A DNA stretch of 64,000 nt from an uncultured Gammaproteobacteria bacterium (GTDB lineage: Bacteria; Patescibacteriota; Microgenomatia; UBA1406; HO2-37-13b). The notes beneath the pieces are model-generated. The model made no database searches. It was not told the DNA's origin and saw nothing but the letters and a program-made list of their open reading frames with translations. The number at the start of each line of letters is the position of its first letter. Position 1 is the first letter of the stretch. Both the position numbers and the translations under genes were made by a program. This document shows, in pieces, positions 1,768-62,925 of the stretch. The stretch is from assembly GCA_964422025.1 (NCBI GenBank), contig CAYQYZ010000004.1, positions 7,768 through 71,767 on the forward strand, read 5' to 3'.

Positions 1768-1810
1768 GGCAACCTGGGAGGTGGAACGTGCGTGGCAACC
1801 TTCGAGGTTG
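1768..1810 (+). repeat. dispersed double-hairpin repeat, family 1, copy A
   Basis: GGCAACCTGGGAGGTGGAACGTGCGTGGCAACCTTCGAGGTTG; core palindrome CAACCT-TCGA-GGTTG; lies just 3' of the stop of the 1817..3025 gene. Confidence 0.8.
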
Positions 1811-1816: not shown

Positions 1817-3025
1817 TTATTCGTAGCGGATTGCTTCAATTGGCGACAAGTTTGCAGCTTTGCGGGCAGGAAATACGCCGAAGATAATTCCAATGAGTGA
1901 AGATACGCCGAATGCGACTAAAACTGAAGTAAGATCAATATACGCTGGGAATACACGTTGGATAAAGAAAACAATTATGTATGAGATGGCGACTCCGCTA
2001 AATCCGCCGATAAGCGAAAGGATGACTGATTCAGCCAGGAATTGCGATAGAATATCTCGGCTTGTAGCCCCAATTGCTCTGCGTATTCCAATTTCACGAG
2101 TACGCTCCACAACTGATACATACATTATATTCATAATACCAATTCCACCGACGAGCAGGGAAATTCCTCCAATGAATACAAGGAGCGTGTTGAGTACTCC
2201 AAAGATCGAGCTTACTGCATTCAAAATCTCGGTTTGTTCGATAACGGAAAAATCATCTTCTTTATAGCGAATTAAGAGTGAATCGGTAACACGAGCTTTT
2301 GCGATGTTAACTGCATCTTCATTGGCGACTTTCACATAAATTCCCACAAAGTTTTTGTCGGGGTTAAAGCTGTATACCGACTTATACGGAGCGTATGTAA
2401 AACTGTCAAGATCGGGCCCTCCAAATCCACCGCCTCCTTTGGACTCAAGTACTCCGATTACTCGAAATGCCTGACCTTCGATTTGTACATTTCTGCCCAC
2501 AGCAGCCGCAGATGATCCAAAGAGCTTTTTTGCTAGAGTTGGGCCAATGACAACAATTTTAGACCGCTTATCTACGTCTGTCTTTTTAAATATGCGTCCT
2601 TGGTCAATGGTTAAGTTACGAATCGTAAACATGTCTGCGGTAGTACCATAGAGGTCGGAAACCTCTGTTTTTTTACCAGCGGTCATACTAACGGCTCGGC
2701 TAAAAATTGGCACTACATAGCTGACTGATGGTACTCGTTTTAGCTTTGCAACATCGCGCTCGTCGAATTTAACTCCTCCGAGTCCGCTTGAACCTCCACG
2801 AAAACTTCCACCCGAAAAAACTTTTCCCGGCAGTATGACAATTAAATTAGTTCCTAAACTCTCAAATTGATTTTTAATGTATTGTTTCAAGCCGAGCCCA
2901 AAAGCAATAAGAAGAACGACTGATGCTACGCCAATGAGAATTCCAAGCGATGTTAGAAAAGTGCGTAATTTGTTGCGCTTAAAGTCTTCCAAAGCCGTCT
3001 TGATTATAAATATAAAATAGTTCAT
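1817..3025 (-). CDS. ABC transporter permease, MacB/FtsX family
   Basis: N-terminal TM, large extracytoplasmic domain, then C-terminal FtsX-type 3-TM bundle (GGIGIMNIMYVSVVERTREIGIRRAIGA). Confidence 0.9.
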   Translation of the reverse strand: MNYFIFIIKTALEDFKRNKLRTFLTSLGILIGVASVVLLIAFGLGLKQYIKNQFESLGTNLIVILPGKVFSGGSFRGGSSGLGGVKFDERDVAKLKRVPSVSYVVPIFSRAVSMTAGKKTEVSDLYGTTADMFTIRNLTIDQGRIFKKTDVDKRSKIVVIGPTLAKKLFGSSAAAVGRNVQIEGQAFRVIGVLESKGGGGFGGPDLDSFTYAPYKSVYSFNPDKNFVGIYVKVANEDAVNIAKARVTDSLLIRYKEDDFSVIEQTEILNAVSSIFGVLNTLLVFIGGISLLVGGIGIMNIMYVSVVERTREIGIRRAIGATSRDILSQFLAESVILSLIGGFSGVAISYIIVFFIQRVFPAYIDLTSVLVAFGVSSLIGIIFGVFPARKAANLSPIEAIRYE

Positions 3026-11822: not shown

Positions 11823-13481
11823 ATGAAATTTGAATATAAAATCTTCTCGGTGATACTTGGCTTGATTCTGATATTTGTGTTAGGAGCAAAGCTGTTACCA
11901 ACAACCCGAACGATGTTTGAATTTCATGATCAAACCCAGGCCGCACGGATTGCGCAATTTACGGTGAATTTAGAAAATCTCAATATTCCTCCGCGAATGG
12001 CTCCGGACTTTTCATATGGTTTGGGATACCCGGTATTTAATTTTTATGCACCATTTGCGTATTGGGTGAGCTCACTCCTCTCCTTACTCGGCATGACGAC
12101 GATAGCCGCCTTAAAAACATCCTTTTTACTTGCGATTGTTGTTGCAGCTGGGGGAATGTATTTATTTTTGCGTGAGCAATTTGATGAGGCAGCATCACTC
12201 CTCGGTGCAACACTGTATGTAACGTCGAGCATCATTCCCTTAGAAATTTTTGTACGTGGAAATCTGGCTGAGATGTGGTTTTTAGCACTGTTTCCAACGG
12301 CTTTATATTTGCTTATGAGGAACGCAAGAGAGAGTTCTGAGAGGGTGTTTGTGATGACAGCCTTGACTCTGTCCTTTTTGCTAACAGTACACAACATAAT
12401 GTCGCTTTTAGCGGGAGTGTTAGTGGTGATATTTATTGGATTATTGAAGCATAAAAAACGAAACATTCTCGCGCTTTCACTCGGAGTCCTTGCTGGATCA
12501 TATTTTTTAATTCCCGCTTTGCTTGAGTCGCAACTTACTTACGCAACAACCGTTGCGGCGATGACAAATTATGCGGATCATTTTTTGTGTGCAAAACAAC
12601 TATGGAAAGGAATGTGGGGATTTGGAGGAAGTGTTCCCGGATGCGTAAGTGATGGAATGTCGTTTGCTTTGGGGAAAATGCAGTGGGTGCTAGGGCTTGT
12701 AGGCGGCGGAGCGTTGATGTTTACGTTTTATGAGAAGCGAAACTCTCTGAGAGCATATATTGAACACAATGTCCATTCGCGAATCTCACTCTACGTCGCT
12801 CTGTTAACAGGAGTCTCACTCTTTCTAACACTTTATCAATCTGCATTTATATGGAAAATCTTATATCCAATCCTTTCACTCTTCCAGTTTCCGTGGAGAT
12901 TTTTGGTATTTGGTGTATTTGGACTAGCTTATTTTGGAGCATATGGAGCGTACGTTTTGCGCGAAAGACTTCCAGTTATCTCTCACAAGGCTTGGGCCTT
13001 CATCCTTTTTGTCGTGAGTGTCGGACTAATGGCGAACGTCTGTACTCTCTTTAGAGGACAATCAGTAAATAATACGCTATACGAGAGTATGTATATTTCA
13101 GATAATTACATTCGTAATTCAGTCGCATACAAGATACCTGAGTACTTGCCCAAAACGGCAGATTACGCATTTTGGAGGAGCTTTGAAGACAAAAATACAG
13201 TACCATATAGTGATGGACAGTTTGAGAAGCAGACACTGAATATTCACTATTTTCCGTATTGGAAAATTAGAGTAGATGATGAGGAAGTTGTGCCAGATAA
13301 ATTTGATAGTTTTGGTCGGCCAATTATGGTGATTCCAAGTGGATCTGAACTCTTAGTCACCTATGAGCAAACGGCAATAGAGAAATTTGGAGATGGAATA
13401 ACGTTAGCGGCGATAATACTCTTACTGGGAATCGGTATTAACAACAAATTATGGATACGAATAAAGAACATCGAGAGTTAA
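11823..13481 (+). CDS. polytopic membrane protein, GT-C-like paralog family III
   Basis: 552 aa; shares FQFPWR and YFP.WK..VD..V blocks with the 19053..20741 gene. Confidence 0.65.
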   Translation: MKFEYKIFSVILGLILIFVLGAKLLPTTRTMFEFHDQTQAARIAQFTVNLENLNIPPRMAPDFSYGLGYPVFNFYAPFAYWVSSLLSLLGMTTIAALKTSFLLAIVVAAGGMYLFLREQFDEAASLLGATLYVTSSIIPLEIFVRGNLAEMWFLALFPTALYLLMRNARESSERVFVMTALTLSFLLTVHNIMSLLAGVLVVIFIGLLKHKKRNILALSLGVLAGSYFLIPALLESQLTYATTVAAMTNYADHFLCAKQLWKGMWGFGGSVPGCVSDGMSFALGKMQWVLGLVGGGALMFTFYEKRNSLRAYIEHNVHSRISLYVALLTGVSLFLTLYQSAFIWKILYPILSLFQFPWRFLVFGVFGLAYFGAYGAYVLRERLPVISHKAWAFILFVVSVGLMANVCTLFRGQSVNNTLYESMYISDNYIRNSVAYKIPEYLPKTADYAFWRSFEDKNTVPYSDGQFEKQTLNIHYFPYWKIRVDDEEVVPDKFDSFGRPIMVIPSGSELLVTYEQTAIEKFGDGITLAAIILLLGIGINNKLWIRIKNIES

Positions 13482-14899
13482 AACGAAATACGGTAATTAG
13501 TGCATTTAGTTTATTTTTTCAAAGTGGATTTAGTGCCGTGTTGGGGTTGGTAGCAAATTTGGTTTTAACAATCCTACTTGCTCCGGCTGTTTTTGGAATT
13601 TATATTACCGTTCTATCACTTATTTCATTACTCAATTATTTTTCCGATATCGGACTTGCGGCTTCACTTGTACAGAAACATGAAATTAGCGATGAGGATA
13701 TCTCAACGACGTTCACGCTTCAACAGCTCCTTATAATCACCATTATTGCAATTGGATTTTTAGGTACTAATTTTGTTACAGAATTTTATAAATTACCCGC
13801 AGCAGGAGTTCATTTGTATTGGGCGCTATTGTTTTCATTTTTTATATCATCGCTTAAAACAATTCCCTCGATATTGCTTGAACGCAAAATTCAATTTCAA
13901 AAAATTGCATTTGTTCAAATAACAGAAAATGTGGTTTTTTATTGCGCCGTAATTTTATTTGCATTATTAGGATATGATTTAGCAAGCTTTACATACGCCG
14001 TAATGTTACGAGCGATAACCGGACTTATTCTTATTTACACGATTTCATTTTGGAAACCAACATTTGGGATTTCAAAAAGTAGTCTACATACGCTGTTGTC
14101 ATTTGGTATTCCATTTCAGGCTAGTTCATTTTTAGCATTGTTTAAAGATGATTTAATAATTTTGTTTTTAAGTAAAGTATTAGGATTTGATGCAGTCGGG
14201 TATATAGGATGGGCGAAAAAGTGGGCGGAAACTCCGATACGGATTATTATGGATAACTTAAGTCGCGTGCTGTTTCCTGTGCTTGCGCGAATTCAGCATG
14301 ATAAAGAAAAAATTTCACGACTTATTGAAAAGATTTTATATTATCAGACAATGCTTTTGGCTCCGGCAATTTTTGGACTATTTATGACAATGCCGGTAAT
14401 GGTTCAGTTGATTCCAAAGTATGCCAAGTGGGAACCAGCGCTGCCATTATTTTACCTTTTCTGTATTAGTGCATTCTTCTCGTCGTATTCGACACCATTT
14501 ATGAACTTGTTCAATGCGCTAGGAAGAGTGAAGACGTCGTTTGCATTCATGTTATTCTGGACAGTAACTACATGGATTTGTACACCACTGTTTACTGCTA
14601 AATATGGAATGTTGGGATTCCCAATTACTCAACTAATATTAGCAACAAGCTCGCTGTTGGTGGCCGGACAAGCTAAGAAATTAGTTGAATTTAGATTTTG
14701 GCATTCAATCTATAAACCATTGATTGCAACAGTCGTTATGGTGATATGTATTTATGCTGGGTTGTCAATAATGCCAGTAACATACTTATCGCTATTACTT
14801 GCAGTAGTCGGTGGAGCGGGAGTATATTTTGGAGTCTTATTTTTCGTATTTAATGTGAACCCTATTAATGAAGTTAAATCACTATTTAATCATGAATAA
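13451..14899 (+). CDS. Wzx-like oligosaccharide/polysaccharide flippase (MOP superfamily)
   Basis: 482 aa, ~12-14 TM, N-terminal pattern KRNTVISAFSLFFQSGFSAVLGLVANLVL typical of polysaccharide biosynthesis (Wzx) proteins. Confidence 0.8.
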   Translation: MDTNKEHRELKRNTVISAFSLFFQSGFSAVLGLVANLVLTILLAPAVFGIYITVLSLISLLNYFSDIGLAASLVQKHEISDEDISTTFTLQQLLIITIIAIGFLGTNFVTEFYKLPAAGVHLYWALLFSFFISSLKTIPSILLERKIQFQKIAFVQITENVVFYCAVILFALLGYDLASFTYAVMLRAITGLILIYTISFWKPTFGISKSSLHTLLSFGIPFQASSFLALFKDDLIILFLSKVLGFDAVGYIGWAKKWAETPIRIIMDNLSRVLFPVLARIQHDKEKISRLIEKILYYQTMLLAPAIFGLFMTMPVMVQLIPKYAKWEPALPLFYLFCISAFFSSYSTPFMNLFNALGRVKTSFAFMLFWTVTTWICTPLFTAKYGMLGFPITQLILATSSLLVAGQAKKLVEFRFWHSIYKPLIATVVMVICIYAGLSIMPVTYLSLLLAVVGGAGVYFGVLFFVFNVNPINEVKSLFNHE

Positions 14900-15869
14900 T
14901 AATACAACCTCGAAGGTTGAACACGCACTACCAACCTCGAAGGTTGTCAAATCAGCCGTTATAGTAGTAAAAGATTACCCGGAACATATTTTCAAAACGC
15001 TCGATTCAGTTCGCTCTTTTGTAGATGAGGTAGTCATTGGCGATATTGGTATTGATGAGGAGCTGTTGGCGAAGCTGAAAAAGATTGAGAATATAAAAAT
15101 AGTTACTGTTACAAAAAAAGTTCCCTATGTTGAATTAATTCGTGAGGAGTTGCATGCGCAAGCAAAAGGAGACTATATTTTAGTTCTTGATTCGGATGAG
15201 ATTGTTCCATCTGCTCTCGCCACCCTGTTGGACTCGGCAGTAGGGAAGTATGACTATGTAAAAGTTCCCCGAAAGAATATTATTTTTGGAAAGTGGATTG
15301 AACATTCACGCTGGTGGCCTGATTATCAAGTGAGATTTTTTAAGAAAGGCTCAGTTGTATGGCCTAAGGTGCTTCATGCACAACCTAAAGCTGAAGGAAG
15401 CGAGCTCATAATCGAACCCAAGGAGGAGAATGCACTTGTTCATTATAATTACAGGGATCTGGATGAATACCTCTCAAAAGCTCCACGGTATGCAAAGGCA
15501 GAGGCGGCAGGGATCCTGAAACAAGTTCAGGATGACAATACTGCTCAAAGTGATACGAGCTTTACCTTCTTTGGTAAAAAAGCGCTGTCTGAGTTTGTTG
15601 GACGATACTTTGCGGATGATGGATATAAAGATGGCATGCATGGATTTGTATTGGCATTCTTGCAAATGATGTATTACTTTCTAGTGTATTTCTATGTATG
15701 GGAATTGGGAGGAAGAAAAGAAGTAGAACAAAAAAGTCTTTTACAGGGCACAGTGCAATTCTTTTCGGATGCATTGTATGAAATAAGTTTCTGGGGAAAG
15801 AAAAAAGGTTTGAGTAATATTTCATTTGTAAAATCGAAATTACATAACTTAGTCCGTAAGTTGTCATGA
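14892..15869 (+). CDS. GT2 glycosyltransferase (paralog of 30144..30998)
   Basis: DSDE (DxD) motif, PRKNIIFGKWIEHSRWWPDYQVRFF block shared with 30144; ATG at 14892 overlaps the flippase stop; contains family-1 and family-2 repeat copies in frame. Confidence 0.8.
   Translation: MNNNTTSKVEHALPTSKVVKSAVIVVKDYPEHIFKTLDSVRSFVDEVVIGDIGIDEELLAKLKKIENIKIVTVTKKVPYVELIREELHAQAKGDYILVLDSDEIVPSALATLLDSAVGKYDYVKVPRKNIIFGKWIEHSRWWPDYQVRFFKKGSVVWPKVLHAQPKAEGSELIIEPKEENALVHYNYRDLDEYLSKAPRYAKAEAAGILKQVQDDNTAQSDTSFTFFGKKALSEFVGRYFADDGYKDGMHGFVLAFLQMMYYFLVYFYVWELGGRKEVEQKSLLQGTVQFFSDALYEISFWGKKKGLSNISFVKSKLHNLVRKLS
14905..14946 (+). repeat. double-hairpin repeat, family 1, copy B (inside CDS)
   Basis: CAACCTCGAAGGTTG-AACACGCACTAC-CAACCTCGAAGGTTG; translated in frame as TTSKVEHALPTSKVV at the N-terminus of the GT2. 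Confidence 0.85.
15511..15537 (+). repeat. hairpin repeat, family 2, copy a (inside CDS)
   Basis: GGATCCTGAAACAAGTTCAGGATGACA; 8-bp inverted repeat ATCCTGAA/TTCAGGAT; read as GILKQVQDD. Confidence 0.85.
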
Positions 15870-21378: not shown

Positions 21379-21513
21379 ATGGAATATCCATTATTAAACA
21401 ATACGCCTAAGGGGCTTGACAGTTCCCGTAGGAAGCCCTTATTAATCCTAATACTTGTTTTCTTCGCAATGATAATCCTTGGAGTTATTCTTAATTTGCC
21501 TTATATATGGTAA
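21379..21513 (+). CDS. possible 44-aa single-TM micro-protein (below the ORF-track cutoff)
   Basis: ATG 2 nt after the stop of the 20786 gene; MEYPLLNNTPKGLDSSRRKPLLILILVFFAMIILGVILNLPYIW; basic stretch then a clean TM helix. Confidence 0.35.
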   Translation: MEYPLLNNTPKGLDSSRRKPLLILILVFFAMIILGVILNLPYIW

Positions 21514-23188
21514 CTGTCTTATTCTGAAAGATCTGCTCGATACTCCCTTGGCAACCTTCGAGGTTAGTAATCGGGCGCGATGTAAGTTCATAGAGATAGT
21601 CGACTTCATTAAGTACTTCGCAATTCCAGTCTAAGCTTTTCTCCATACGCTCCTGGTAGTCGACTCCTGTTAATTGTAATTGAACTTCATCGGCGATGTA
21701 TTGTTGTTTGCCCGAAAACGCAGCAATATATGCGGAGTCATTCATGTGCGAAAGGGGAATTGGCGCTTGTGTAGCTAGTCTGTTAATTTCTTTATTCGGG
21801 AGAGGTGAGAAAATAACACCGGATGGTTGGGTTTTAAGGAATGAAAGCGCGGCAAGCTCCTGTTCCGGAATATATGAGTGTGCTGGGAACTGTGCGAACG
21901 TTTTGAAAATGTCGATAGATGAGGGAATAGTGAGAAGGATAATGAAAAGAGTAATTATAACTCCCCCGCGCTTAAACCTCTTTACAAGTTCGTAGAGTGC
22001 GCTTGCCGTAAATATGTTCGCTAAGAAAAACGCATAGTAACTAAACTGAACCGTGTTCCACCACTGCCCTTTTTGAACAAAGAATATATTCAAGAACATA
22101 GCAAAAATAATAGTGAGCGTGATAAGGAAATGAAATGTCGTAAACTCTCTCTTAACGAGCAACTTGAGAACGTAGAGGAGTCCGAGGATTCGGGTTCCAA
22201 AATTGAGAAGTAAGAAGAGTGCTATTACTTGAAATTGGATTAAGACAAGACGCGGGCTGAACTTTCCAGAATTTTCAAGAAAATATTTTGCATTAACTTT
22301 GTCGGGCATGTACAGGAGGTTTGGATCCTCGATAAGCGGATACACAGTGGCCAGAGGTTTAAATGTCATAATTGCACCACCAGTTGTGGGTGCGAAAGGA
22401 TTATAAAAAAGGAGAACGGAAAGTGCAGCAAACGCTCCCAAAAGCCCAAAACGCGTTACAAACGAGCTCAGTTTTCGCTCCTTTATAGACTGAATGAGAA
22501 AGTATGTCCCAACAATGAATAGACTAATTACTCCTCCGTAGAATTTAAGTGCGATGTTAAGAGCAACAAGAAGACTTAAAAGAAAAATCGAACGTGCATC
22601 ACTCTTGCCTACCTTAATCATGATAAGGATGTACAGGAGGACACACAGCGAGAATCCGAATTGCACGTTGGTAAGCGTAAGAAGCGACTGCATTGCCAGT
22701 AACGCTCCCGATCCTTCGATGGTTTTATCTTTTAAGAGTGTAATGAAATACGAAAATGAGCCAGAAAAATACATGAAAAAAAGAAGAAGCCCAACGAATA
22801 GACTCGAATCATGCAATTTGCGCCCGAGTTTAATAACGAGCGCGGTAAAGAGTGTAAACCACATTAGTGGAAGAATCTTAAAGTACGTAATAAGAGCGGG
22901 GATTCCAAGTTTAGAAAATACAAAGATAACGATATCAAGAAAAAAATTGTAACCTGAAAGTTGAGCTCCTGAAAATGTGGGAGCAACAAAAGGTAAATCG
23001 GTAAATGAGGCGACCACAATTGCTAAATGCCAGATTGCATCGTGTCCATGGGCTCCCCAGAAAAAAAGTCCGCACGAATCCTTAAAGCAGTATTCACTTC
23101 CACTGGGCATAATAGTAAGCATGTATGAAACAAAGGCAACAAGGATAAGCAAAAGTAGTGCGGGGTATTTTTTGATATAATCGATCAT
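21491..23188 (-). CDS. polytopic membrane protein, GT-C/O-antigen-polymerase-like (family uncertain)
   Basis: 565 aa, >10 TM plus soluble C-terminal domain; located in the glycosylation cluster; no diagnostic motif recognised. Confidence 0.6.
   Translation of the reverse strand: MIDYIKKYPALLLLILVAFVSYMLTIMPSGSEYCFKDSCGLFFWGAHGHDAIWHLAIVVASFTDLPFVAPTFSGAQLSGYNFFLDIVIFVFSKLGIPALITYFKILPLMWFTLFTALVIKLGRKLHDSSLFVGLLLFFMYFSGSFSYFITLLKDKTIEGSGALLAMQSLLTLTNVQFGFSLCVLLYILIMIKVGKSDARSIFLLSLLVALNIALKFYGGVISLFIVGTYFLIQSIKERKLSSFVTRFGLLGAFAALSVLLFYNPFAPTTGGAIMTFKPLATVYPLIEDPNLLYMPDKVNAKYFLENSGKFSPRLVLIQFQVIALFLLLNFGTRILGLLYVLKLLVKREFTTFHFLITLTIIFAMFLNIFFVQKGQWWNTVQFSYYAFFLANIFTASALYELVKRFKRGGVIITLFIILLTIPSSIDIFKTFAQFPAHSYIPEQELAALSFLKTQPSGVIFSPLPNKEINRLATQAPIPLSHMNDSAYIAAFSGKQQYIADEVQLQLTGVDYQERMEKSLDWNCEVLNEVDYLYELTSRPITNLEGCQGSIEQIFQNKTVTIYKAN
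21549..21566 (+). repeat. family 1 half-element, copy G (inside CDS, opposite strand)
   Basis: TTGGCAACCTTCGAGGTT; read on the minus strand as NLEGCQ near the C-terminus of the 21491 gene. Confidence 0.6.
23173..23181 (+). promoter_or_regulatory. extended -10 box TGATATAAT 7 nt upstream of the ATG at 23189 (predicted leaderless)
   Basis: The box lies within codons 3-6 of the divergent 21491..23188 gene; start codons abut as CAT|ATG at 23186-23191. Confidence 0.5.
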
Positions 23189-24037
23189 ATGGCAGGAATC
23201 GCAATCATAACGGTGGTGTATAAGAATTATACGGTACTTGAGGACTTCATGGAGAGTATTCGAAAGCAGAAAGATACGGATTTTAAGTTGTTTATCGTGG
23301 ATCTAACTGAGAATGCGGTGAGTGTGCTTGATGCGAAAACCTTCGAGGATCCTAAAAAGGGATCCCGAAACGAGTTCGGGATGACAGTTCTACACTCTGC
23401 GAACAAAGGCTATGCGCATGGAATTAACGTCGGTTTAAAAAAAGCGATCGATGAAGGGTTTGAAAAATTCTGCGTAATGAATAGCGATACGTATTTTAAA
23501 GAAAACTTTGTGTCGTCAATTTCTGATTTTTTGATTGCGCATCCACGAACAATTGGAGGCGGGAAAATATACTATGCTGATGGTTTTGAGTATCACAAAG
23601 AATATGCAAAAAATGATTTGGGAAATGTGATTTGGTTTGCCGGGGGGAAAATAGATTGGAATCACGTAATCACCTCTCACGTGGGCGTTGATGAGGTGGA
23701 CGAAGGGCAGTTTAATGAAGAAAAAGAAGTGGATTTTTTAACGGGGTGTATGATGTTTTTTGACAAAGCTGCGTTGGATGTAGTGGGTTTTTGGGACGAG
23801 TCGTACTTTTTATATTATGAAGATGCAGATTGGAGTGTTCGCGCAATAAAGGCGGGCGTACGACTGGTGTACACTCCACGGGTTACCTTGTGGCATAAGA
23901 ATGCACAATCGACTGATGGGGCGGGTTCAAGTATTCATACAAAATATCAGGAAAAGAATCAGGTTAAATTTGGACTTGCGTACGCTCCTTTGCGAACTAA
24001 ACTACACTTACTAAAAAACTTATTCTGGCACAATTAG
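23189..24037 (+). CDS. GT2 glycosyltransferase (rhamnosyltransferase-like subfamily)
   Basis: IAIITVVYKNY start, NSDT (DxD-equivalent), YYEDADWSVRAIKAGV block shared with 32028..32864 (YWEDVDLSLRAKKRGW). Confidence 0.85.
   Translation: MAGIAIITVVYKNYTVLEDFMESIRKQKDTDFKLFIVDLTENAVSVLDAKTFEDPKKGSRNEFGMTVLHSANKGYAHGINVGLKKAIDEGFEKFCVMNSDTYFKENFVSSISDFLIAHPRTIGGGKIYYADGFEYHKEYAKNDLGNVIWFAGGKIDWNHVITSHVGVDEVDEGQFNEEKEVDFLTGCMMFFDKAALDVVGFWDESYFLYYEDADWSVRAIKAGVRLVYTPRVTLWHKNAQSTDGAGSSIHTKYQEKNQVKFGLAYAPLRTKLHLLKNLFWHN
23338..23386 (+). repeat. composite repeat: family-1 half site plus family 2 copy c (inside CDS)
   Basis: AACCTTCGAGG-ATCCTAAAAAGG-GATCCCGAAACGAGTTCGGGATGACA; read as TFEDPKKGSRNEFGMT. 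Confidence 0.75.
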
Positions 24038-28560: not shown

Positions 28561-30091
28561 TGGTATGAAGTAGATTGGGATCCGGGGCAACTCGGACTTC
28601 TTCGGGTGTAAGGTCGTACTCCTCAATATAAAAATTGGAATTGTATTTATGTATTAGGTTGGGTTTGCGATCAATTTTAACTTGTCCAGCCTTCCACCAC
28701 TTTTCATTTGTATACGGGTGGTCATGAGCAGGGAATGTAAGTAGATATGTTTTCTCGCTTTTTTGAAACGGTTTAGCGATCTTGTTTTCATTCGCCTTTT
28801 GAGCATAATTCATAGCGTATCGTGACGAATAACCAAATTGGTCAGCAGTGTAAATAAAATATCCGAACTCCGACGGGGCCGACGCAAAAATATCTTGGGC
28901 AGGTTTGTAGTAGTATTGCCACGTTCCACCTGTTTTTCCGGTTCCAATATACGCACTAGCCTTATAGCTATCTTTTGTAAGATTAATAACATTGAATCCT
29001 AGTAATAATATATATGCTACGAAAAAAATTCTTTTGTCGATCAACTTATACGTTGATGCAATAAGGATAATAAGCAGAGGAGTAAGTGGCCAATAATAAT
29101 AACTCCAAATGACTCCTTTAAAGATTAGAGTACATGCCCAAAAGCCAATATAGAAACTTCCAATAAGAAAATATATGAGCTTGTCATTAAAGGTTTTCTT
29201 GTGACTCACGAGGCCGGCAATAATTGTGGTCCATGTTGCTGCAATTAATAGCGGGAAGTTATGTCCGATAAATGAAATGCCACTTCTAGTGAATCCCTGC
29301 ATTCTGTCATATAGAAATTTACTCGTTGAGGTGTGTACCTTCCCAGCGTTTTCAACCCCAGTGAGGAAATTAATGACTGATCGTACTTGAAGGAAGTCGT
29401 GTTTTATTTCGAATAAAATGTAACTTGAAAGAGGTAGGATAATTGTAGACATAAAAAGAATGTGTTTAAACTCTTTCTTTTTGCCAATGTGAAACAGTAC
29501 TATGCATGTGGTGATAAGTGCAATTGGCACCCCAAAAGCCATTTGGAATTGAATTAGGAGACCGAGTATGAAATATGTTACCGCAAGATAAACTCCTTTA
29601 TTTTCCTTAATATACAAGTATAAAAAATACAGAAAAAGTGGACTTAGGTATACGGCCCCAGAAGGATTAAAAGAATCTTTTACCAATCCCGCAGTTGTAA
29701 ATGTATATAGCAAAGTGCTTAAGTACGCAACTTCTGCTCCAAACATTTTTTTTGAAACATGCCACATTCCCCAGACGCTCGCAATGAAAAATAATAGCCA
29801 GCCCCACGCTACTATGACTGGATTACCATTTCCAATTACAAATGCAGGAATGTTAATATATAGCCATAACGGGCCATGAAAAACTCCTGGAATACCCCCT
29901 GCCCGTGGGCCGATCAATGTAAGAGGCTTTACGTGTACAATGTCTTCTAGTAACAAAAAATCACGAGCAATGTCGGTATGAAAAGTGAGATCGTTATGTA
30001 AGAAAAACCATGATCCTAAAAAAATACCAAACAGAATAAGTATAAGCGATAGTTTTTGAGGCAAAGACGAGATGTTTCTTATTTTGTGCAT
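28547..30091 (-). CDS. polytopic GT-C-like membrane glycosyltransferase, paralog family II
   Basis: FHTDIARDFLLLEDIV and LFEIKHDF motifs; 514 aa multi-TM. Confidence 0.7.
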   Translation of the reverse strand: MHKIRNISSLPQKLSLILILFGIFLGSWFFLHNDLTFHTDIARDFLLLEDIVHVKPLTLIGPRAGGIPGVFHGPLWLYINIPAFVIGNGNPVIVAWGWLLFFIASVWGMWHVSKKMFGAEVAYLSTLLYTFTTAGLVKDSFNPSGAVYLSPLFLYFLYLYIKENKGVYLAVTYFILGLLIQFQMAFGVPIALITTCIVLFHIGKKKEFKHILFMSTIILPLSSYILFEIKHDFLQVRSVINFLTGVENAGKVHTSTSKFLYDRMQGFTRSGISFIGHNFPLLIAATWTTIIAGLVSHKKTFNDKLIYFLIGSFYIGFWACTLIFKGVIWSYYYWPLTPLLIILIASTYKLIDKRIFFVAYILLLGFNVINLTKDSYKASAYIGTGKTGGTWQYYYKPAQDIFASAPSEFGYFIYTADQFGYSSRYAMNYAQKANENKIAKPFQKSEKTYLLTFPAHDHPYTNEKWWKAGQVKIDRKPNLIHKYNSNFYIEEYDLTPEEVRVAPDPNLLHTIIFR

Positions 30092-30143
30092 GTATAGAGT
30101 AGAATAATACTATCAATGCGATTCGTGATTATCAATAAGTAAA

Positions 30144-30998: not shown

Positions 30999-32031
30999 TC
31001 CATATTTAGATGTTTTTGGAGGAGGGGAGAAACATATTCTTTCGATTGGAAAAGTATTTGAAAAACATGGATATGAGGTATCGTTGTATTGGAATGATGA
31101 AAAGATTCTTACGCAACTCTCTGAAACGCTTAAAATCGACACGCACTCTTTTACCATCGAAAAAGAGAAAAGAAAAGGGGAAGGGTATGATGTTTTGCTA
31201 TATGTAACCGATGGAAGTTATTTTATTCCAAAAGCTAAAAAGAATTATGTATTTTGCATGTATCCTCAAAAATCAATTTATGCGAGTTCCCTACTGAATA
31301 AAGTGAAATGGAGAGGGTGGAATTTTTTTGCAAATTCAGAATTTACTGCCAGTTACATTTCTAAATGGGTGGGGAAGAAGACGGGAGTTGTACACCCATT
31401 TATTGAAGATGCAATTTTTGATGCGTACTCTCCTATTGAAAAAAAAGAAAAAGTGATTTTGTCGGTGGGAAGATTTTTTAGACATTTACATGCAAAAAAT
31501 CAGCATTTGTTAGTTGAGGCGTTTAACTTTCTGCAATCACGTCACTCAGAGTTTGAGGATTTCAAATTGGTATTAGTTGGTTCAGTAAAAAAAGAAGATG
31601 AAGAATATTTTGAAGAAGTGAAATTATTGGCACAGGGAAATGAGAATATTGTTTTGGTAAAAAACGCGCCATATTCAGAATGGTTACAGCATTACAAGAC
31701 TTCCATATTTTATTGGCACGCAGCGGGGTTGGGAGCGGATTTGAATGTACATCCGGAAGCGACGGAGCACTTAGGAATTTCAGTTTTGGAAGCAATGATT
31801 GCCGGGTGTATTACATTTGCTCATAATTCCGGTGGTCCAAAAGAAACAATTGAAAATGGAAAGACAGGGTTTTTGTATGATACGATTGAAGAGTTAGTTA
31901 GTAAGACGGCGGAAGTGCTCTCTAAGAGCCCTGCTCTCCAAGAAGTATCAACAGCGGCAAAGGAATATGGAGAACAAAATTTTTCAAGTGAGGGGTTTAA
32001 AAGAAAAGTTGAAGAATATTTTAATCTATGA
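30964..32031 (+). CDS. GT4 (group 1) glycosyltransferase
   Basis: GT-B C-terminal signature EHLGISVLEAMIAGCITFAHNSGGPKETIENGKTGFLY; start may be the ATG at 30976 (MKKILIVD). Confidence 0.88.
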   Translation: MKSIMKKILIVDPYLDVFGGGEKHILSIGKVFEKHGYEVSLYWNDEKILTQLSETLKIDTHSFTIEKEKRKGEGYDVLLYVTDGSYFIPKAKKNYVFCMYPQKSIYASSLLNKVKWRGWNFFANSEFTASYISKWVGKKTGVVHPFIEDAIFDAYSPIEKKEKVILSVGRFFRHLHAKNQHLLVEAFNFLQSRHSEFEDFKLVLVGSVKKEDEEYFEEVKLLAQGNENIVLVKNAPYSEWLQHYKTSIFYWHAAGLGADLNVHPEATEHLGISVLEAMIAGCITFAHNSGGPKETIENGKTGFLYDTIEELVSKTAEVLSKSPALQEVSTAAKEYGEQNFSSEGFKRKVEEYFNL

Positions 32032-32864
32032 AAATTTCAGTAATCATTCCGGTTTATAAAAATAAGGAACTTTTGAAAAAAAGTTTTGAAAATAATTATG
32101 AATTTTTGAAAGGATGTGAAATTATTGTGGTAAACGATTTTCCGGATGAGTCGATTGCGGATGTGTTTGAAAAATATTCTGATGTGAAACAAATTGTGAA
32201 TGAAAAAAATATGGGATTTGCAAATACCGTGAATCGTGGTGCAAAAGAAGCTTTGGGTGATTTATTATTCTTGTTAAATTCAGATGTCATTTTGAAAAAT
32301 GATTCATACAAAAAAGCAATAAAACATTTTGAAGAAAATGAAAAATTATTCGCAGTAAGTTTTGCACAAATTGAGCAAGACGGAAAAACAGTAGGAAAGA
32401 ATAGGGTATTTTTTCAGAATGGATTTATTATGCATGAGAAAGCCAGAGATCTCTTATTTGGACCTACCGGTTGGGCGGAAGGTGGAACGTGTGTTATACG
32501 GAGAGTATATTTTGAAAAACTTGGCGGATTTGATGGGGCATACTCCCCTTTTTATTGGGAGGACGTTGACCTATCGTTGCGAGCTAAAAAGCGTGGGTGG
32601 GATGTTATTTTTGATCCGGAGATATTAGTCGAACATCATCACGCTTCAACAATTGGAAAATATTACAAAGATGATTTTCGAGAACTGATCTCTTATCGGA
32701 ATCAGTTTATATGTACATGGAAGAATGCGATGGGTTCACAGAGAATTTCACATGCACTCCATTTGCCGTTTATATTGGTAAAATCTATAATCACCGGAAA
32801 TTGGAATTTAGTGAAAGGATTTTTTAAGGCAATTCTGGTAACCTCGGAGGTGGAACATGCCTAG
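32028..32864 (+). CDS. GT2 glycosyltransferase
   Basis: ISVIIPVYKNKELL, VVNDFPDES, LNSDV, YWEDVDLSLRAKKRGW; the last 8 codons and the TAG stop lie in family-1 repeat copy C. Confidence 0.88.
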   Translation: MKISVIIPVYKNKELLKKSFENNYEFLKGCEIIVVNDFPDESIADVFEKYSDVKQIVNEKNMGFANTVNRGAKEALGDLLFLLNSDVILKNDSYKKAIKHFEENEKLFAVSFAQIEQDGKTVGKNRVFFQNGFIMHEKARDLLFGPTGWAEGGTCVIRRVYFEKLGGFDGAYSPFYWEDVDLSLRAKKRGWDVIFDPEILVEHHHASTIGKYYKDDFRELISYRNQFICTWKNAMGSQRISHALHLPFILVKSIITGNWNLVKGFFKAILVTSEVEHA

Positions 32865-32880
32865 TCAACCTCGGAGGTTG
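32837..32880 (+). repeat. double-hairpin repeat, family 1, copy C
   Basis: GGTAACCTCGGAGGTGGAACATGCCTAGTCAACCTCGGAGGTTG followed by TTTT; ends 10 nt before the ATG at 32890. Confidence 0.85.
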
Positions 32881-32889
32881 TTTTAGCAT

Positions 32890-34518
32890 ATGAAAACAAA
32901 ATTAATACTACTTGGAATAATTGTTTTGACAGTCCTTTTACATGTTGTGAAAGTAAAGTCGCTTCCTGTCTGCTTGAATGCAGATGAGGCTGCATTTGGA
33001 TATAACGCGTATAGTCTCTTGAAGACGGGAAAAGATGAATATGGCGCCATGCTCCCATTAAGACTTAAATCCTTTGGAGATTATAAACTTCCATTATATT
33101 CATATCTCTCAGTTCCCTTTATTGGTGCAATGGGACTCACAGAAACTTCAACCCGCGCACTTGCGATGCTGATTGGAATTCTATTCCCATTAGTAGTATA
33201 TTTTTTGACAAAAGAATTATTTGAGGATGAACGGATTTCTTTGCTTGCGGCGTTTCTAACAGGCGTTTCCCCGTGGATCCAAATCACCGCTCGGCATGCA
33301 CATGAAGCACCATTGGCAGTATTTCTACTAACCATAGCCGCAACGTTACTGCTAAGATTTATTAAAACTAGTGAGAAAAAATATTTGTATTGGTTTGCGT
33401 TTGTAGAATTGATGAGTTTATTTGCATATCACTTAAGCAGACCAATTGTATTGGGGATGATTGTGTATTTGGGAGTTGTACTCTTATTAAGGAGAAAACA
33501 CCTAGATCCTTCGACTCGTCGTACCTCCTCGCTCAGGATGACAAGCCGACTTATTGCCGCGGCATTATTACCTTTAGTGGTATTTACGTTTACTGACGTT
33601 TTATATAATCCAACTCGGTTAAAAAATTTGATTTTCTTTAATGACGGGGGATTCAAACTTTCAATTAAACAAAAGTTGACAGAAAAGAATTTGCCAATTA
33701 TTTACAATCCGGTAACACAAAGCTTGTTGGATTTACCTAAAGAATACATAAAGTATTTCTCACCAGAATTTTTAGTTGTTCATGGTGACACGAATTATCG
33801 ATTTGGCTATCCGGGAATCTCTCTCATCTCTCTCGTCGAGTACGGCATGGTGTTTGTGGGGTTATATTTCCTAATAAATAAGCGGCCAAAAAATATGTCG
33901 TACATCCTCTTTTTACTCCTCATTGGACCTGTTGCCGCGTCACTTTCTTTTTTTGAATATTCAGCAACACGATCGATATTCATGGTGGTTCCGATGTTAA
34001 TTATTGCATCATATGGAGCGATTTCATTAGTCAATTCTCTTACTCGCCGTTACAGAGTATGGGCGGCTGTACTTCTTTTTGTTGCATTTGGATTCTTTAA
34101 TTTTATGACCTGGGACTTTTACTTTTTTCATTACCCATACAGAGCGGTCACTGTACGATCGTGGCAATGTGGATACAAAGAACTTGCACAATATGTAAAT
34201 ACTAATTACGATAAATTTGAGAAATTTAATATTACAACTCGAAATGGGGAACCATATATTTTCATGCTGTTTTATTCAAAGTATCCACCGGAATTATATC
34301 AGAAACAGGCCACACTCTCTCCACCTGACGAGTATGGGTTTGGACAAGTATGGAAGTTTGATAAATACGATTTTCAATTTAATGTAGATCATCCAAAAGA
34401 GGGGACTTCGTATATTGGATATCCGGAGCATTTCAAAGATAAAGCAGATATTGACACTTCTAAGATTCAGAAAATAACTGCAGGGACAGAAGAGATGTTT
34501 TATATATACGAACCGTAA
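32890..34518 (+). CDS. PMT/ArnT-like (GT39-type) GT-C membrane glycosyltransferase
   Basis: 542 aa multi-TM; first-loop motif CLNADEAAFGYNAYSLLKTGKDEYG; soluble C-terminal domain. Confidence 0.8.
   Translation: MKTKLILLGIIVLTVLLHVVKVKSLPVCLNADEAAFGYNAYSLLKTGKDEYGAMLPLRLKSFGDYKLPLYSYLSVPFIGAMGLTETSTRALAMLIGILFPLVVYFLTKELFEDERISLLAAFLTGVSPWIQITARHAHEAPLAVFLLTIAATLLLRFIKTSEKKYLYWFAFVELMSLFAYHLSRPIVLGMIVYLGVVLLLRRKHLDPSTRRTSSLRMTSRLIAAALLPLVVFTFTDVLYNPTRLKNLIFFNDGGFKLSIKQKLTEKNLPIIYNPVTQSLLDLPKEYIKYFSPEFLVVHGDTNYRFGYPGISLISLVEYGMVFVGLYFLINKRPKNMSYILFLLLIGPVAASLSFFEYSATRSIFMVVPMLIIASYGAISLVNSLTRRYRVWAAVLLFVAFGFFNFMTWDFYFFHYPYRAVTVRSWQCGYKELAQYVNTNYDKFEKFNITTRNGEPYIFMLFYSKYPPELYQKQATLSPPDEYGFGQVWKFDKYDFQFNVDHPKEGTSYIGYPEHFKDKADIDTSKIQKITAGTEEMFYIYEP
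33504..33544 (+). repeat. hairpin repeat, family 2, copy e (inside CDS)
   Basis: AGATCCTTCGACTCGTCGTACCTCCTCGCTCAGGATGACA, read as LDPSTRRTSSLRMT in a predicted loop. Confidence 0.75.
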
Positions 34519-34551
34519 TGTTCAAATAAGTTGAATAGTTAATTCTTTCTT

Positions 34552-34595
34552 GGCAACCTGCGGGATTTGATAGGCACTGGCAACCTTCGAGGTTG
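34552..34595 (+). repeat. double-hairpin repeat, family 1, copy D (terminator-like)
   Basis: GGCAACCTGCGGGATTTGATAGGCACTGGCAACCTTCGAGGTTG followed by TTTT, between convergent genes. Confidence 0.8.
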
Positions 34596-34599
34596 TTTT

Positions 34600-35088
34600 C
34601 TACGCCTTTCCAATAAATGGAAGGGGAAACGGCTGGGAAAGATATTTTTTGTACAATTCCAAATCATCGCCATGATCGAAAGCTATTTCCTCAGCCGGAG
34701 GTAAGGTGTCGATCGAAAACCATGCGAGTTGTTTAACTTCCTCATCGCCTTCAGTAAAGTCAGAATCAGTCTTTACAATATATACAAATTCAATAATTTG
34801 TCGATCTTCGGCAGGACGATCAGGGTTGTCTTTAATATGCATAAGTGTCATGTCGCCCGCCATGCAACTGGTTTCTTCTAGGATTTCTCGGGCAAGCGCT
34901 TGATGCAAATTTTCATCGCGATTTACAAATCCGCCAATTAGCCCCCATTTTCCATATTCAAGCATTGGTTTCCCATGAACGGTTCCCCGTTTTCCTAGAA
35001 GGATTTTTCCGTCTTTTATAAGAATCGCGTTAACAGTGACATGTCGTAAAAGAGCGGACCCGCCGTCTTCAAAAGTGCATGTGATCAT
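34600..35088 (-). CDS. NUDIX hydrolase
   Basis: Nudix box GGFVNRDENLHQALAREILEETS. Confidence 0.9.
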   Translation of the reverse strand: MITCTFEDGGSALLRHVTVNAILIKDGKILLGKRGTVHGKPMLEYGKWGLIGGFVNRDENLHQALAREILEETSCMAGDMTLMHIKDNPDRPAEDRQIIEFVYIVKTDSDFTEGDEEVKQLAWFSIDTLPPAEEIAFDHGDDLELYKKYLSQPFPLPFIGKA

Positions 35089-35747: not shown

Positions 35748-35804
35748 TACTATACAATATAGGAGGTTATGGGGGAAATATCAAGGAGAAGAAGCTGTAA
35801 AATT

Positions 35805-35813
35805 TGATATACT
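35805..35813 (+). promoter_or_regulatory. extended -10 box TGATATACT 6 nt upstream of position 1 of the tRNA-like gene
   Basis: TGnTATACT; the spacing places the predicted start at G35820. Confidence 0.45.
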
Positions 35814-41609: not shown

Positions 41610-41876
41610 ATGATTGACATATCACAAGTATTTATTGCATCTGCGATTACCATTATGACGGTGGTTTTGGTGGTAGTGGGAATTAATTTGATTATTTTCT
41701 TGCGAAATATGAGTAAAATCATTGCTCGGGTTAACGGAATTGTTGACGAACTTCAAAAGATTGGCATGCATGTAGGACAAGGAGCCGGAGAAATTGTTGG
41801 ATTTGTTTCAGGAATCAAGGGGTTCTTTAGAATTGTAGATCTATTATCGAAAAAAAAGAAGAATGACAAAAAATGA
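41610..41876 (+). CDS. small membrane protein (DUF948-like)
   Basis: N-terminal TM (FIASAITIMTVVLVVVGINLIIF) followed by a helical region; track start 41574 is the TTG of a TTGACA box; ATG at 41601 or 41610 more likely. Confidence 0.55.
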   Translation: MIDISQVFIASAITIMTVVLVVVGINLIIFLRNMSKIIARVNGIVDELQKIGMHVGQGAGEIVGFVSGIKGFFRIVDLLSKKKKNDKK

Positions 41877-42174
41877 ACACGATACACATAATAAATCCTT
41901 TTGGTCGGGACTTTCGCTCGGCGTAATCGTTGGTGCTTCGGGACTTGCCCTGTTTGGAACAAAAAAAGGACGGGAATTGGTACATAAACTTCTGGAAGTA
42001 ACCGATAATTTTGAAGAAACTGCTGGGGGATTTATTAATGATATGGAACACGAGATTGAAAGTCATGAAGGCCTAGGCGCCGCCAAAAAAGCCGGATTTA
42101 CCGCTATTGAGTCATTGTTGGATAAAATTCAATCAATAATGCCCGACAGAAATCCTCCGAAGGTGTTGAAATAA
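41863..42174 (+). CDS. YtxH-like small membrane-associated protein
   Basis: FWSGLSLGVIVGASGLALFGTKKGRE motif characteristic of the YtxH family. Confidence 0.65.
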   Translation: MTKNEHDTHNKSFWSGLSLGVIVGASGLALFGTKKGRELVHKLLEVTDNFEETAGGFINDMEHEIESHEGLGAAKKAGFTAIESLLDKIQSIMPDRNPPKVLK

Positions 42175-42184: not shown

Positions 42185-42230
42185 GGCAACCTCCGGGCCG
42201 GATCAGGCACGTTCAACCTCTTAGGTTGAA
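42185..42230 (+). repeat. double-hairpin repeat, family 1, copy E (doubles as terminator)
   Basis: GGCAACCTCCGGGCCGGATCAGGCACGTTCAACCTCTTAGGTTGAA then TTTTG; the right half is identical to copy F. Confidence 0.85.
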
Positions 42231-61395: not shown

Positions 61396-61441
61396 TGCAA
61401 CCTGCGGGCTAAGCTAGGCACGTTCAACCTCTTAGGTTGAA
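61396..61441 (+). repeat. double-hairpin repeat, family 1, copy F
   Basis: TGCAACCTGCGGGCTAAGCTAGGCACGTTCAACCTCTTAGGTTGAA; the right 27 nt are identical to copy E. Confidence 0.85.
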
Positions 61442-61443: not shown

Positions 61444-62925
61444 CTAGGCCTTCTCCGTAACCTTATATTCCAAATTCTTTCCTAAAATAAGCCGTGTGTG
61501 GGCTTCCAGAGCAGGAAGAGATGAAAATACAAACGAAACAATCGGCATTAAATACCACTGAATAAAGAGGAGGGGTACGTTGCGAAGCGACGTTTTAATG
61601 TTCACTTTTTCACGGAGTTTGTGGTCGAAATAGAGGGTGATTACCATGGTAAGTGTTCCAAGCGTTAGAATTGCGGATGACATTTGGGGAAGCAGATAGC
61701 CAAGTACCGTGCGGCCGAATGACGGGTTTACCCAGCCGGGAACCCAGGCGGATAGGGTGAGAATGAAAAATGACGTTGGCCATAGCAGGTGGGGTTCTGC
61801 GAGGAGTATTATGCGACGTAGTTTTGGCCACCAGGCAATGTGGGGGGTTTGCAGCGATTGTTTGATGGCGTAGGGAATGTCGGTGGCGCCCCATGCCCAG
61901 CGGCGTTCTTGCTCGTAGCGATTTTGAAAAGCGCTAATCATGCTGCCGGTGTACACCGGGTCGCCAATGACGGGCAAATAAATAGGAAGTGTGCGGACTT
62001 TTTCACCGTGTTTAAAAAACGCTTGTAGCCAAATATGCCAATCTTCGGGAATAATATCTACGTCCCAAAATCCTACGCTATGAAGTAACCATAAATTGGT
62101 GGAGTACGTTGAAACTTGAATCAGGTCGTCGCGCTGGGGCAACATAGAGACGCGGATTATTGAATGTAAAATTGCTTGCATGCGAATAGGTAGGCTCAAT
62201 TTCCAGAAATTGTTGTATAGCAAAATAGGAGCCCAATAAAAATGGAAATCGCGATCCTTGTCTTTTAAAAATTCTAGACTTAAATACGCCAAGTATGCTG
62301 GGGGAAATAGGCTGTCGGCATCGGCGATCGTAATAATTGCCTGTTTTGGATTGGTATGGTGCTCTTTAGCGTGTTCATAAATTACTTTCCCCGCGTGTGC
62401 TTCGTTACTTGCTTTACCAACGATTTCTCCTTCGATCAATGGATGATACGTTGTAATAATTTCTCCAAAAACATGCCCAAATTTTTTAGTCAGCGCTTCG
62501 CTACGGATTCGGGCTGGCTCGCCTTCGCGTTGTTCCATAGCCAAAACAACAATGACTTTTTTTAAGTCATACTGTTGCGCGGAAAGTTTTTCGAGCGACA
62601 AAGAAACTTTTTCGACTGTTTCTTTGTAATTTGCGACAACAATGTAATGAGCTAAATCTTGCCATCCTGGGGTTTTGAGCAGTCTTTTGTGCCAATCTAT
62701 TGTATCGGCTTTTTCCATTAACTGATAGGCAATTGATGCAAAATAGACCCCTTTGATTGTTTTGTACAAAAAATACAAAAAGTACGCCAAAATAAAATAT
62801 GAAACAACGGCAGGACGAAACGGGGAAAGATACACGGGCATTAAAATAATGAGCCACGCAAAAATAGGAATGAGCATTTCGGCAATTCGGTAGAATAATC
62901 GCGTCTCGACAATCTTATTGATCAT
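61444..62925 (-). CDS. membrane-embedded processive-type GT2 glycosyltransferase (cellulose/chitin-synthase-like)
   Basis: N- and C-terminal TM bundles flanking a GT-A domain with ADADS and QERRWAWG (Q..RW-type) motifs. Confidence 0.8.
   Translation of the reverse strand: MINKIVETRLFYRIAEMLIPIFAWLIILMPVYLSPFRPAVVSYFILAYFLYFLYKTIKGVYFASIAYQLMEKADTIDWHKRLLKTPGWQDLAHYIVVANYKETVEKVSLSLEKLSAQQYDLKKVIVVLAMEQREGEPARIRSEALTKKFGHVFGEIITTYHPLIEGEIVGKASNEAHAGKVIYEHAKEHHTNPKQAIITIADADSLFPPAYLAYLSLEFLKDKDRDFHFYWAPILLYNNFWKLSLPIRMQAILHSIIRVSMLPQRDDLIQVSTYSTNLWLLHSVGFWDVDIIPEDWHIWLQAFFKHGEKVRTLPIYLPVIGDPVYTGSMISAFQNRYEQERRWAWGATDIPYAIKQSLQTPHIAWWPKLRRIILLAEPHLLWPTSFFILTLSAWVPGWVNPSFGRTVLGYLLPQMSSAILTLGTLTMVITLYFDHKLREKVNIKTSLRNVPLLFIQWYLMPIVSFVFSSLPALEAHTRLILGKNLEYKVTEKA

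Follow-up and report, generated by a model that had tools for sequence, protein, structure and literature searches.

The 64-kb window examined here (the whole 64,000-nt stretch analysed, contig CAYQYZ010000004.1, positions 7,768 to 71,767) contains two glycosyltransferase (GT2) genes whose opposite ends are built from the same short palindromic repeat, hereafter family 1. One copy (copy B) is translated close to the N-terminus of the GT2 at 14892..15869 (GT2-B), and another (copy C) provides the C-terminus and stop codon of the GT2 at 32028..32864 (GT2-C); the sequence and open reading frames (ORFs) were found to be as described in the original prediction. The locus raises the question of why one repeat should give near-identical peptides, TSKVEHA and TSEVEHA, at opposite ends of two enzymes, and whether these peptides and the hairpins beside them have a function of their own. 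Our results indicated that family 1 is quite probably a repetitive extragenic palindromic (REP) repeat of the REPIN type (REP doublets forming hairpins), with a partner resembling the REP-associated tyrosine transposases (RAYTs), which intrudes at overlapping gene junctions. The two junctions comprise the following features.

13451..14899, + strand: flippase-type polysaccharide gene (Polysacc_synt; Pfam matches on orthologs), whose TAA lies 5 nt before copy B.
14892..15869, + strand: GT2-B glycosyltransferase, GT-A fold, with a conserved start codon that shares bases with the stop of the preceding gene (ATGAATAA).
14905..14946, − strand (canonical spacer orientation, GTAGTGCGTGTT): copy B, a family-1 REP doublet of two identical 15-nt palindromes (CAACCTCGAAGGTTG) with a period of 27 nt.
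32028..32864, + strand: GT2-C glycosyltransferase, whose last ~8 residues and stop are supplied by copy C.
32839..32880, + strand: copy C, a family-1 REP doublet, whose first unit TAACCTCGGAGGTGG forms the GT2-C tail and whose spacer AACATGCCTAGT holds the TAG.
32890..34518, + strand: GT-C glycosyltransferase, PMT_2-type, whose ATG overlaps the GT2-C stop (ATGA) in element-free relatives.

At the first junction (site B), the ATG of GT2-B at 14892 and the flippase TAA at 14897-14899 form the start/stop overlap ATGAATAA, and because of this overlap copy B lies inside GT2-B. Its layout is CAACCTCGAAGGTTG-AACACGCACTAC-CAACCTCGAAGGTTG, and its in-frame translation gives residues 5-19 of the protein (TTSKVEHALPTSKVV); the whole N-terminal extra of GT2-B in the window is NTTSKVEHALPTSKVVK. 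Translation was read from the sequence, and the peptides of copies B and C are named MNNNTTSKVEHALPTSK (GT2-B N-terminal) and ...KAILVTSEVEHA (GT2-C C-terminal). Comparison with homologs revealed that GT2-B proteins usually start with MNNISAIIVVK, and that extra residues at this position occur only in the closest relatives, each time with a different sequence, including NTTSKVV from a single unit in P0004, a doublet with another hairpin for its first half in P0001, and a degenerate single unit in P0003 and P0005. P0002, P0006 and P0009 carry no extra residues there; in relatives with an empty site the protein begins MNNISAV. At the DNA level, the empty site reads ATGAATAAT followed directly by ATATCT (L074, L075), and the filled sites are longer by 21 nt (L004), 24 nt (L003), 48 nt (window) and 60 nt (L001/L002, a variant found in two independent samples). 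As all four fillings are multiples of three and free of stop codons, the segment appears to be under coding constraint, and the translation of copy B, asserted from the window sequence in the original prediction, is supported by these variants.

It could be argued that copy B is an untranslated 5′ leader and that GT2-B starts downstream of it at a non-canonical codon. N-terminal REPs elsewhere are often artefacts of start prediction, according to Di Nocera et al. (2013; PMC3733652), and gene callers indeed disagree on the GT2-B start, which is given as MKLNHY... in P0001 and P0004 and as MNN... elsewhere. However, the claim that no alternative start exists was confirmed, no in-frame ATG, GTG or TTG being found from codon 2 (14895) to the conserved strand SAVIVVKD, and the MNN start over the flippase stop is kept in empty and filled genomes alike. 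Together with the in-frame, stop-free fillings, these results make an untranslated leader very improbable. The AlphaFold model of GT2-B (mean pLDDT 91.3) places residues 1-19 in a low-confidence coil ahead of strand 1 (residues 20-28), which fits a tolerated N-terminal tail. The exact GT2-B protein of the window, with either start, had no record in the public protein collection, and the exact copy B had no independent assembly.

The closest relative (L075, 91% nucleotide identity overall) carries no insert at site B. Its first ~45 GT2-B residues (L075 8473-8610 against window 14892-15030) are far more divergent than the remainder and resemble P0008 and P0009, suggesting that its lack of copy B reflects a recombination mosaic at the 5′ end of GT2-B, not a precise excision. 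P0008, from a 2.1-kb Logan contig, has a different 23-residue insert at this site (VTRPITRPPGSRYVRHEPTPGVT), which, judged from the protein sequence alone, is probably derived from another palindromic element.

At the second junction (site C), copy C has the layout TAACCTCGGAGGTGG-AACATGCCTAGT-CAACCTCGGAGGTTG and is read as VTSEVEHA up to the TAG at 32862-32864. This peptide and this stop are those of the original prediction. The doublet spans 32839-32880, and the distance from its second unit to the next ATG (32890) was corrected to 9 nt instead of 10; the T-run there consists of 4 T only. In the empty site of L071, the stop and start overlap (gcaattgcaagaatATGA; in ...gcaattgcaagaatATGAaaac the TGA stop overlaps the following ATG; the sequence is also given as ...gcaagaatATGA for the L071/L074 contig), and the GT2-C tail ends in AIARI. 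Copy C turns this ATGA overlap into a 25-nt gap before the ATG of the next gene. The site is filled differently in the window and in three relatives: L073 holds one 18-nt in-frame unit, keeps the ATGA overlap and ends in VTSEVTKI; L072 holds a doublet with AAG loops, takes its TAA from the loop and ends in ILAT; and L059 holds a copy of a second, tail-type form (described below) and ends in AATCGLS with the stop TAG.

These results bear directly on whether selection has placed TS(K/E)VEHA as a protein tag, for instance for sorting or interaction, on two enzymes of one pathway, a view for which the near-identical peptides on two GT2 enzymes in neighbouring glycosylation clusters might speak. 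The tails of the orthologs are unrelated or absent, the closest relative has no insert at site B, and the idea is largely refuted thereby; in addition, the segment is predicted to be disordered and the same DNA is non-coding in the four other window copies, which leaves a selected tag scarcely credible. TSKVEHA and TSEVEHA are alike because palindromic DNA is read in the same frame in both genes, and the shared peptide, as read from these sequences, appears to be a by-product and not a tag.

The proposal that copy C places a terminator-like hairpin inside an operon is weak. Like rho-independent terminators, the element is a stem-loop just past stop codons, and copies C and D are followed by TTTT. 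However, its stem is short and lacks a high GC content. Most copies and orthologs have no T-run (it is missing at copy B, at copy A on the − strand, at copy F and in L072), and where orthologous copies occupy site C the run differs among them. A consensus scan detected no terminator-like site in 30000-36000, the orientation of the element relative to transcription varies, and some copies lie between divergent genes. A canonical rho-independent terminator was rejected on these grounds. Mimicry of a Shine-Dalgarno motif by the 3′ arm (GGAGGT) was also dropped, as no window gene has such a motif.

The family-1 unit is a 15-nt palindrome, CAACCT-N3-AGGTTG. It mostly comes in doublets, whose two units repeat at 27 nt and enclose a spacer of 12 nt (consensus ACAGTGCSTRKT). 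Alignment of 32 spacer-oriented doublets from the window and its relatives gave the consensus (tgg)CAACCT-NNN-AGGTTG-ACAGTGCSTRKT-CAACCT-NNN-AGGTTG, with an invariant TGC core and a spacer of 11-12 nt. In the tail-type form, the half unit CCCGCAGGTTGC stands in place of the second unit (window copies D, E and F). Since each unit is palindromic, a doublet is at once a direct and an inverted repeat. The loops differ in coding potential: CTT and AAG give TAG or TAA in one frame, as in L072, and CGA, TCG and CGG, the loops of copies B and C, are open in all frames. When up to three mismatches were allowed, the 15-mer gave 19 strand-matches in the window against 1.25 expected, a number reached by none of 100 shuffled sequences. 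A repeat search grouped the copies, and six loci (A-F) are genuine, with halves spaced 26-27 nt from start to start. Besides copies B and C, these are as follows, together with one doubtful match.

1770..1810, + strand: copy A, a doublet, separated by 6 nt from the stop of 1817..3025, an FtsX/MacB-type gene on the − strand.
34553..34595, − strand: copy D, tail type (full unit, spacer and half unit CCCGCAGGTTGC), between convergent genes and 4 nt from the stop of a NUDIX gene.
42186..42228, − strand: copy E, tail type, 11 nt past the stop of the small ORF 41863..42174.
61397..61439, − strand: copy F, tail type, 4 nt from the stop of the minus-strand gene 61444..62925.
21552..21566, no strand assigned: unit-like 15-mer G, within the coding sequence of ORF 21491..23188 (TNLEGCQ); doubtful.

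All six copies lie 0-11 nt from a stop codon, and in the wider set many copies lie 0-12 nt from a stop or overlap the 3′ end of an ORF by 3-16 nt, with four located between divergent genes. An apparent bias of all seven matches to the + strand was an artefact of the palindromic unit; the spacer gives the orientations A+, B−, C+, D−, E− and F−. As RNA, copies A and B fold into one long hairpin with energies of −17.8 to −25.7 kcal/mol (z −3.8 for copy A, whose + strand gives −25.7 kcal/mol, and −2.9 for copy B), and the fold z-scores of copies C, D, E and F are unremarkable. Match G was rejected as an insertion, as the protein is equally long in the element-free relative L071 and the sequence is conserved coding sequence. 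At this site L072 (1103) and L075 (13438) carry a perfect unit (CAACCTGTCAGGTTG) with unchanged protein length, L003 16730 is also at the orthologous position, and the L071 ORF reads TSKSGCQ, which is unrelated; the repeat family may have converted the sequence here, or the likeness may be due to chance.

The distribution of the elements in relatives was then compared. A pattern scan covering one genome per species found ~25 loci with a doublet in the sister genome GCA_964413645.1 (80% nucleotide identity to the window), which also holds an array of five units (four consensus and one variant). In the L071/L074 contig (76% nucleotide identity), no unit was present in ~27 kb of syntenic sequence, and site D is empty in L071, with a convergent spacer of 21 nt. 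Empty states were thus seen at junctions B, C and D, each of which can do without the element, and the peptide lacks conservation. Copy E has a counterpart at the orthologous site of the sister genome (L011 6676) and copy F has one in L021, so that copies C, E and F hold orthologous junctions across ~20% nucleotide divergence. Comparison of empty and filled sites B and C gave no consistent pattern of target-site duplication. A miniature inverted-repeat transposable element (70-300 bp long, bounded by terminal inverted repeats and causing target-site duplications) was rejected, the element being too short and without consistent duplication.

A candidate partner for these elements was identified in the sister genome. 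The L015 ORF 5214..5858 has a family-1 element on either side, with the spacers in inverted orientation, and one of the two begins directly after the stop of the ORF. The encoded protein matches Pfam Y1_Tnp with 29.4 bits (cut-off 23) and contains the HUH motif (PNHFHF) and the tyrosine motif (SRYVHRNP). A 65% identical homolog, P0244 (L077 ORF 4958..5596), has doublets on both sides as well, and the gene order ftsX-RAYT-LTD is common to L015 and L076/L077 at 77% nucleotide identity. The best NCBIfam match of both transposases was REP_Tyr_transpos (E 1.2e-12 and 1.4e-19; 47.9 and 70.4 bits, below the curated cut-off of 80), and the IS200 model matched far more weakly or not at all. Among metagenomic relatives of the transposase, the same 6-bp-stem triloop hairpin was found upstream and downstream in 29 of the 65 with both flanks available, and ACCT-N3-AGGT stems occurred in 18 of 80. 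L077 comes from sample SRR12762304, another contig of which encodes the exact GT2-C protein of the window and matches the window sequence through copy C into the start of the next gene.

Taken together, the elements may be explained as the non-coding counterparts of a putatively single-copy Y1 transposase (IS200-like, RAYT type), which presumably made or spread them via single-stranded DNA hairpins. In a compact genome whose operon genes overlap by a few bases and which has no spare intergenic DNA, insertions would survive mainly within ~0-11 nt of stop codons, and because genes overlap there (ATGA, ATGAATAA), an element at such a junction necessarily falls in coding sequence. Copy B would have landed 5 nt past the flippase stop, which is already codon 4-5 of GT2-B, and only an in-frame, stop-free version (with CGA loops) could have persisted as a disordered 15-residue N-terminal tail. 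Copy C would have landed 8 nt upstream of the GT2-C/GT-C ATGA, putting the old stop out of reach and letting the frame run to the spacer TAG. We infer that the transposase mobilises the elements and that the translated segments are neutral passengers.

Several observations weigh against this explanation. The unit of 15 nt is shorter than classical REPs, and GTAG, a tag characteristic of many REP families, is found at spacer positions 8-11 in only a subset of copies, the others having GTGT, CTGT, CTAG, GTGG or GGAG. The NCBIfam RAYT score of the L015 ORF, 47.9 bits, is under the cut-off of 80. No RAYT was detected in the 64-kb window by a Pfam scan of ten small ORFs or by a hidden Markov model built from the CPR (candidate phyla radiation) RAYT family. 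The tie between the RAYT and the window's own genome consists of the same-sample contig and the synteny with the sister genome, and no accession-based link of P0244 to the window's assembly was found. Finally, the persistence of elements at the orthologous junctions C, E and F could mean that they are maintained for a function and are not neutral.

Comparison with known systems favoured the REP/REPIN-RAYT systems of E. coli and Pseudomonas as the closest counterpart. As there, family 1 consists of short palindromes present many times over, chiefly at the ends of genes and frequently in doublets or clusters able to fold into a larger hairpin; a Y1 (IS200-like) transposase gene has the same elements on both sides, and is syntenic in two diverged genomes here; and copies overlap ORF ends and supply stop codons. 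According to Di Nocera et al. (2013; PMC3733652), REPs overlap ORFs, frequently provide neighbouring ORFs with their TAG stop and are located at N- and C-termini of ORFs, and the GTAG- and CGTC-tagged superfamilies form unit clusters with loops of 2-4 nt. REPINs flank single-copy, vertically inherited RAYTs (PMC5581495), and the REPtron architecture of REPs and RAYTs, as set out there and in PMC3733652, is the arrangement observed here. Unlike those superfamilies, family 1 has GTAG before the unit in some copies only (e.g. GCGTAG-T-CAACCT), and the stop of copy C comes from a spacer CTAG. The host is also different, a Microgenomates/Roizmanbacteria-type CPR bacterium, and CPR bacteria are not among the phyla listed in the passages of PMC3733652 consulted. 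Further differences are the perfect 6-bp stem with a free 3-nt centre in a 15-nt unit, the asymmetry lying in the 12-nt spacer, the strict 27-nt period, the degenerate GTAG tag and a transposase below the NCBIfam RAYT cut-off. A search of the available literature for papers linking REP, RAYT or REPIN with CPR or Patescibacteria gave nothing relevant.

Tandem REP units with conserved linkers between genes are also known from the bacterial interspersed mosaic elements of E. coli, to whose clusters the present arrays are similar. In those elements, Y and Z REP types alternate with opposed orientations and are bound by IHF, gyrase or Pol I, features not known from family 1. In-frame palindromic inserts are shared with the Rickettsia palindromic elements (RPEs), which are 100-150 bp long, CGTC-tagged, without a dedicated transposase, often located mid-gene, and in frame within genes that stay functional, adding surface or terminal segments. 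The inserts here are 18-60 nt long and sit at extreme gene ends and junctions. An RPE was rejected, since the elements are 15-42 nt long and have no CGTC end, in-frame behaviour alone being shared. Rfam models at gathering threshold found only tRNA-Cys, tRNA-Ser and tRNA-Lys in the whole window. REP-derived stops, REPs at ORF ends and, classically, in-frame palindromic inserts in Rickettsia being known already, the finding seems to us real but fairly ordinary. What is new is the CPR host, the very short perfect unit with its 27-nt period and the clear series of empty and filled sites at overlapping junctions; the element is not of a new kind.

Another explanation, compatible with a REP origin, is that the elements are kept as cis-acting RNA or DNA signals in operons, whose hairpins beside stop codons would throttle or uncouple translation of the gene that follows, shield the 3′ end of the upstream message or cause partial termination, copies B and C tuning the output of glycosylation genes. 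It would account for the occupation of orthologous junctions by copies C, E and F in genomes ~80% identical to the window, for the position of all six copies 0-11 nt from a stop, for the stable doublet folds of copies A and B, and for the hairpin-containing 25-nt gap that copy C exchanges for an ATGA overlap in a genome without Shine-Dalgarno motifs. On the other hand, relatives without elements at sites B, C and D imply that they are not required, L073 carries a unit and yet keeps its ATGA overlap, the T-run is not conserved, no terminator-like site was found in 30-36 kb, the orientation relative to transcription varies, four copies in the wider set lie between divergent genes, and the fold z-scores of copies C, D, E and F are unremarkable. 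Moreover, the stem sequence itself is conserved and not merely its pairing, which points to recognition by a protein. We therefore regard a kept cis-acting signal as rather unlikely.

A further possibility is that CAACCT-N3-AGGTTG serves as an operator to which a dimeric regulator of the neighbouring genes binds. With its conserved half-site sequence and free centre, the 6-3-6 inverted repeat has the typical form of an operator, and several copies adjoin TATAAT boxes or directly precede promoters (L036, L064, L017 and copy E, which stands just ahead of the promoter-like TTGACA-N17-TATCAT of rpoB). However, copies also occur between convergent genes (copy D, L041, L042, L064) and in coding sequence, tandem arrays reach five units with a conserved spacer, the transposase gene is flanked on both sides, and presence or absence differs among close relatives. 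An operator is accordingly very hard to reconcile with the distribution, and the REP-type repeat with a RAYT-like partner is the explanation we prefer.

One might speculate, though with considerable doubt, that a REPIN-RAYT partnership is native to reduced CPR genomes and has long been kept there, the same junctions being occupied across ~20-25% nucleotide divergence while loops, unit number and spacer orientation were remodelled, that the elements act as translational uncouplers in operons where no Shine-Dalgarno motifs exist and which rely on the overlap of stop and start, and that the occurrence of the unit across phyla reflects a RAYT lineage with conserved specificity or transfer. For annotation, short palindromic repeats in these CPR genomes extend N- and C-termini to varying degrees and displace stop codons, and such termini, in glycosyltransferases and even in rpoC, should not be taken for functional motifs. 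A REP/RAYT-type system in a genome of ~1 Mb that has hardly any intergenic DNA, and in which every insertion has to suit the coding sequence, also offers a compact natural test case for the persistence of elements and for the effect of hairpins at stop/start overlaps on translational coupling.

The same stem was also observed outside these genomes. A GTAG-N-(G)CAACCT-N3-AGGTTG(C) unit recurring every 26-27 nt is present in GC-rich genomes of Acidobacteriota and Chloroflexi, and tandem arrays with this stem were found in unrelated GC-rich phyla, in L005, L058, L062, L068 and L070 (Thermoanaerobaculia, 63-64% GC), in L016, L033 and L053 (Chloroflexi), and likewise in L026, L027, L065 and L066. 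In one such array GGCAACCTGAGAGGTTGCC plus CTACACCG is repeated 8 times with a 27-nt period, the other strand reading GTAG-G-hairpin. Shared RAYT specificity, inter-phylum transfer and coincidence are all conceivable sources of this likeness. In Candidatus Berkelbacteria, another CPR lineage, a strong transposase of the same family (L049 5299-5995; Y1_Tnp 43.6 bits) has GTACACCTCGTAGGTGTAC before it and CCAACCTACGAGGTTGG directly after it. The sister genome GCA_964413645.1 (CAYPSA01; L003, L011-L069) is titled 'uncultured Gammaproteobacteria bacterium' although it is syntenic with the Microgenomates-type window, and this label looks wrong.

The G+C content of the window is 40%, and its genes have homologs labelled Microgenomates or Roizmanbacteria. 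No Shine-Dalgarno motif was found in the window in the upstream regions of ~50 genes (e.g. 4702, 10315, 23189, 56736, 58939, 62925). In many genes TATAAT stands 6-9 nt before the ATG, a spacing that suggests leaderless mRNAs, and genes within operons share an ATGA overlap. At 56699, 57260 and 58899 there is a promoter-like repeat of 32 nt that ends in TGATATAAT. About 8 of 26 doublets in canonical orientation run straight into TAT(A/T)AT (AGGTTG/TATAAT; e.g. L012, L028, L036, L064 and L069), and at copy B (window 14892-14904) this flank is the complement of the AAT AAT codons. This flank could reflect a target preference for -10-like sequence or an element lending its TG to neighbouring promoters.

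A second hairpin repeat, GATCCTGAAACAAGTTCAGGATGAC, is present in four copies, all on the + strand (15512-15536, 23361-23385, 49667-49691 and 54070-54094). In GT2-B it forms the in-frame, lineage-specific insert ILKQVQDD, which is lacking in distant homologs and present as a variant in close ones. One of the other copies lies within the GT2 gene 23189..24037, one is intergenic, and one forms the last seven residues and the TGA stop of rpoC (DSETSSE).

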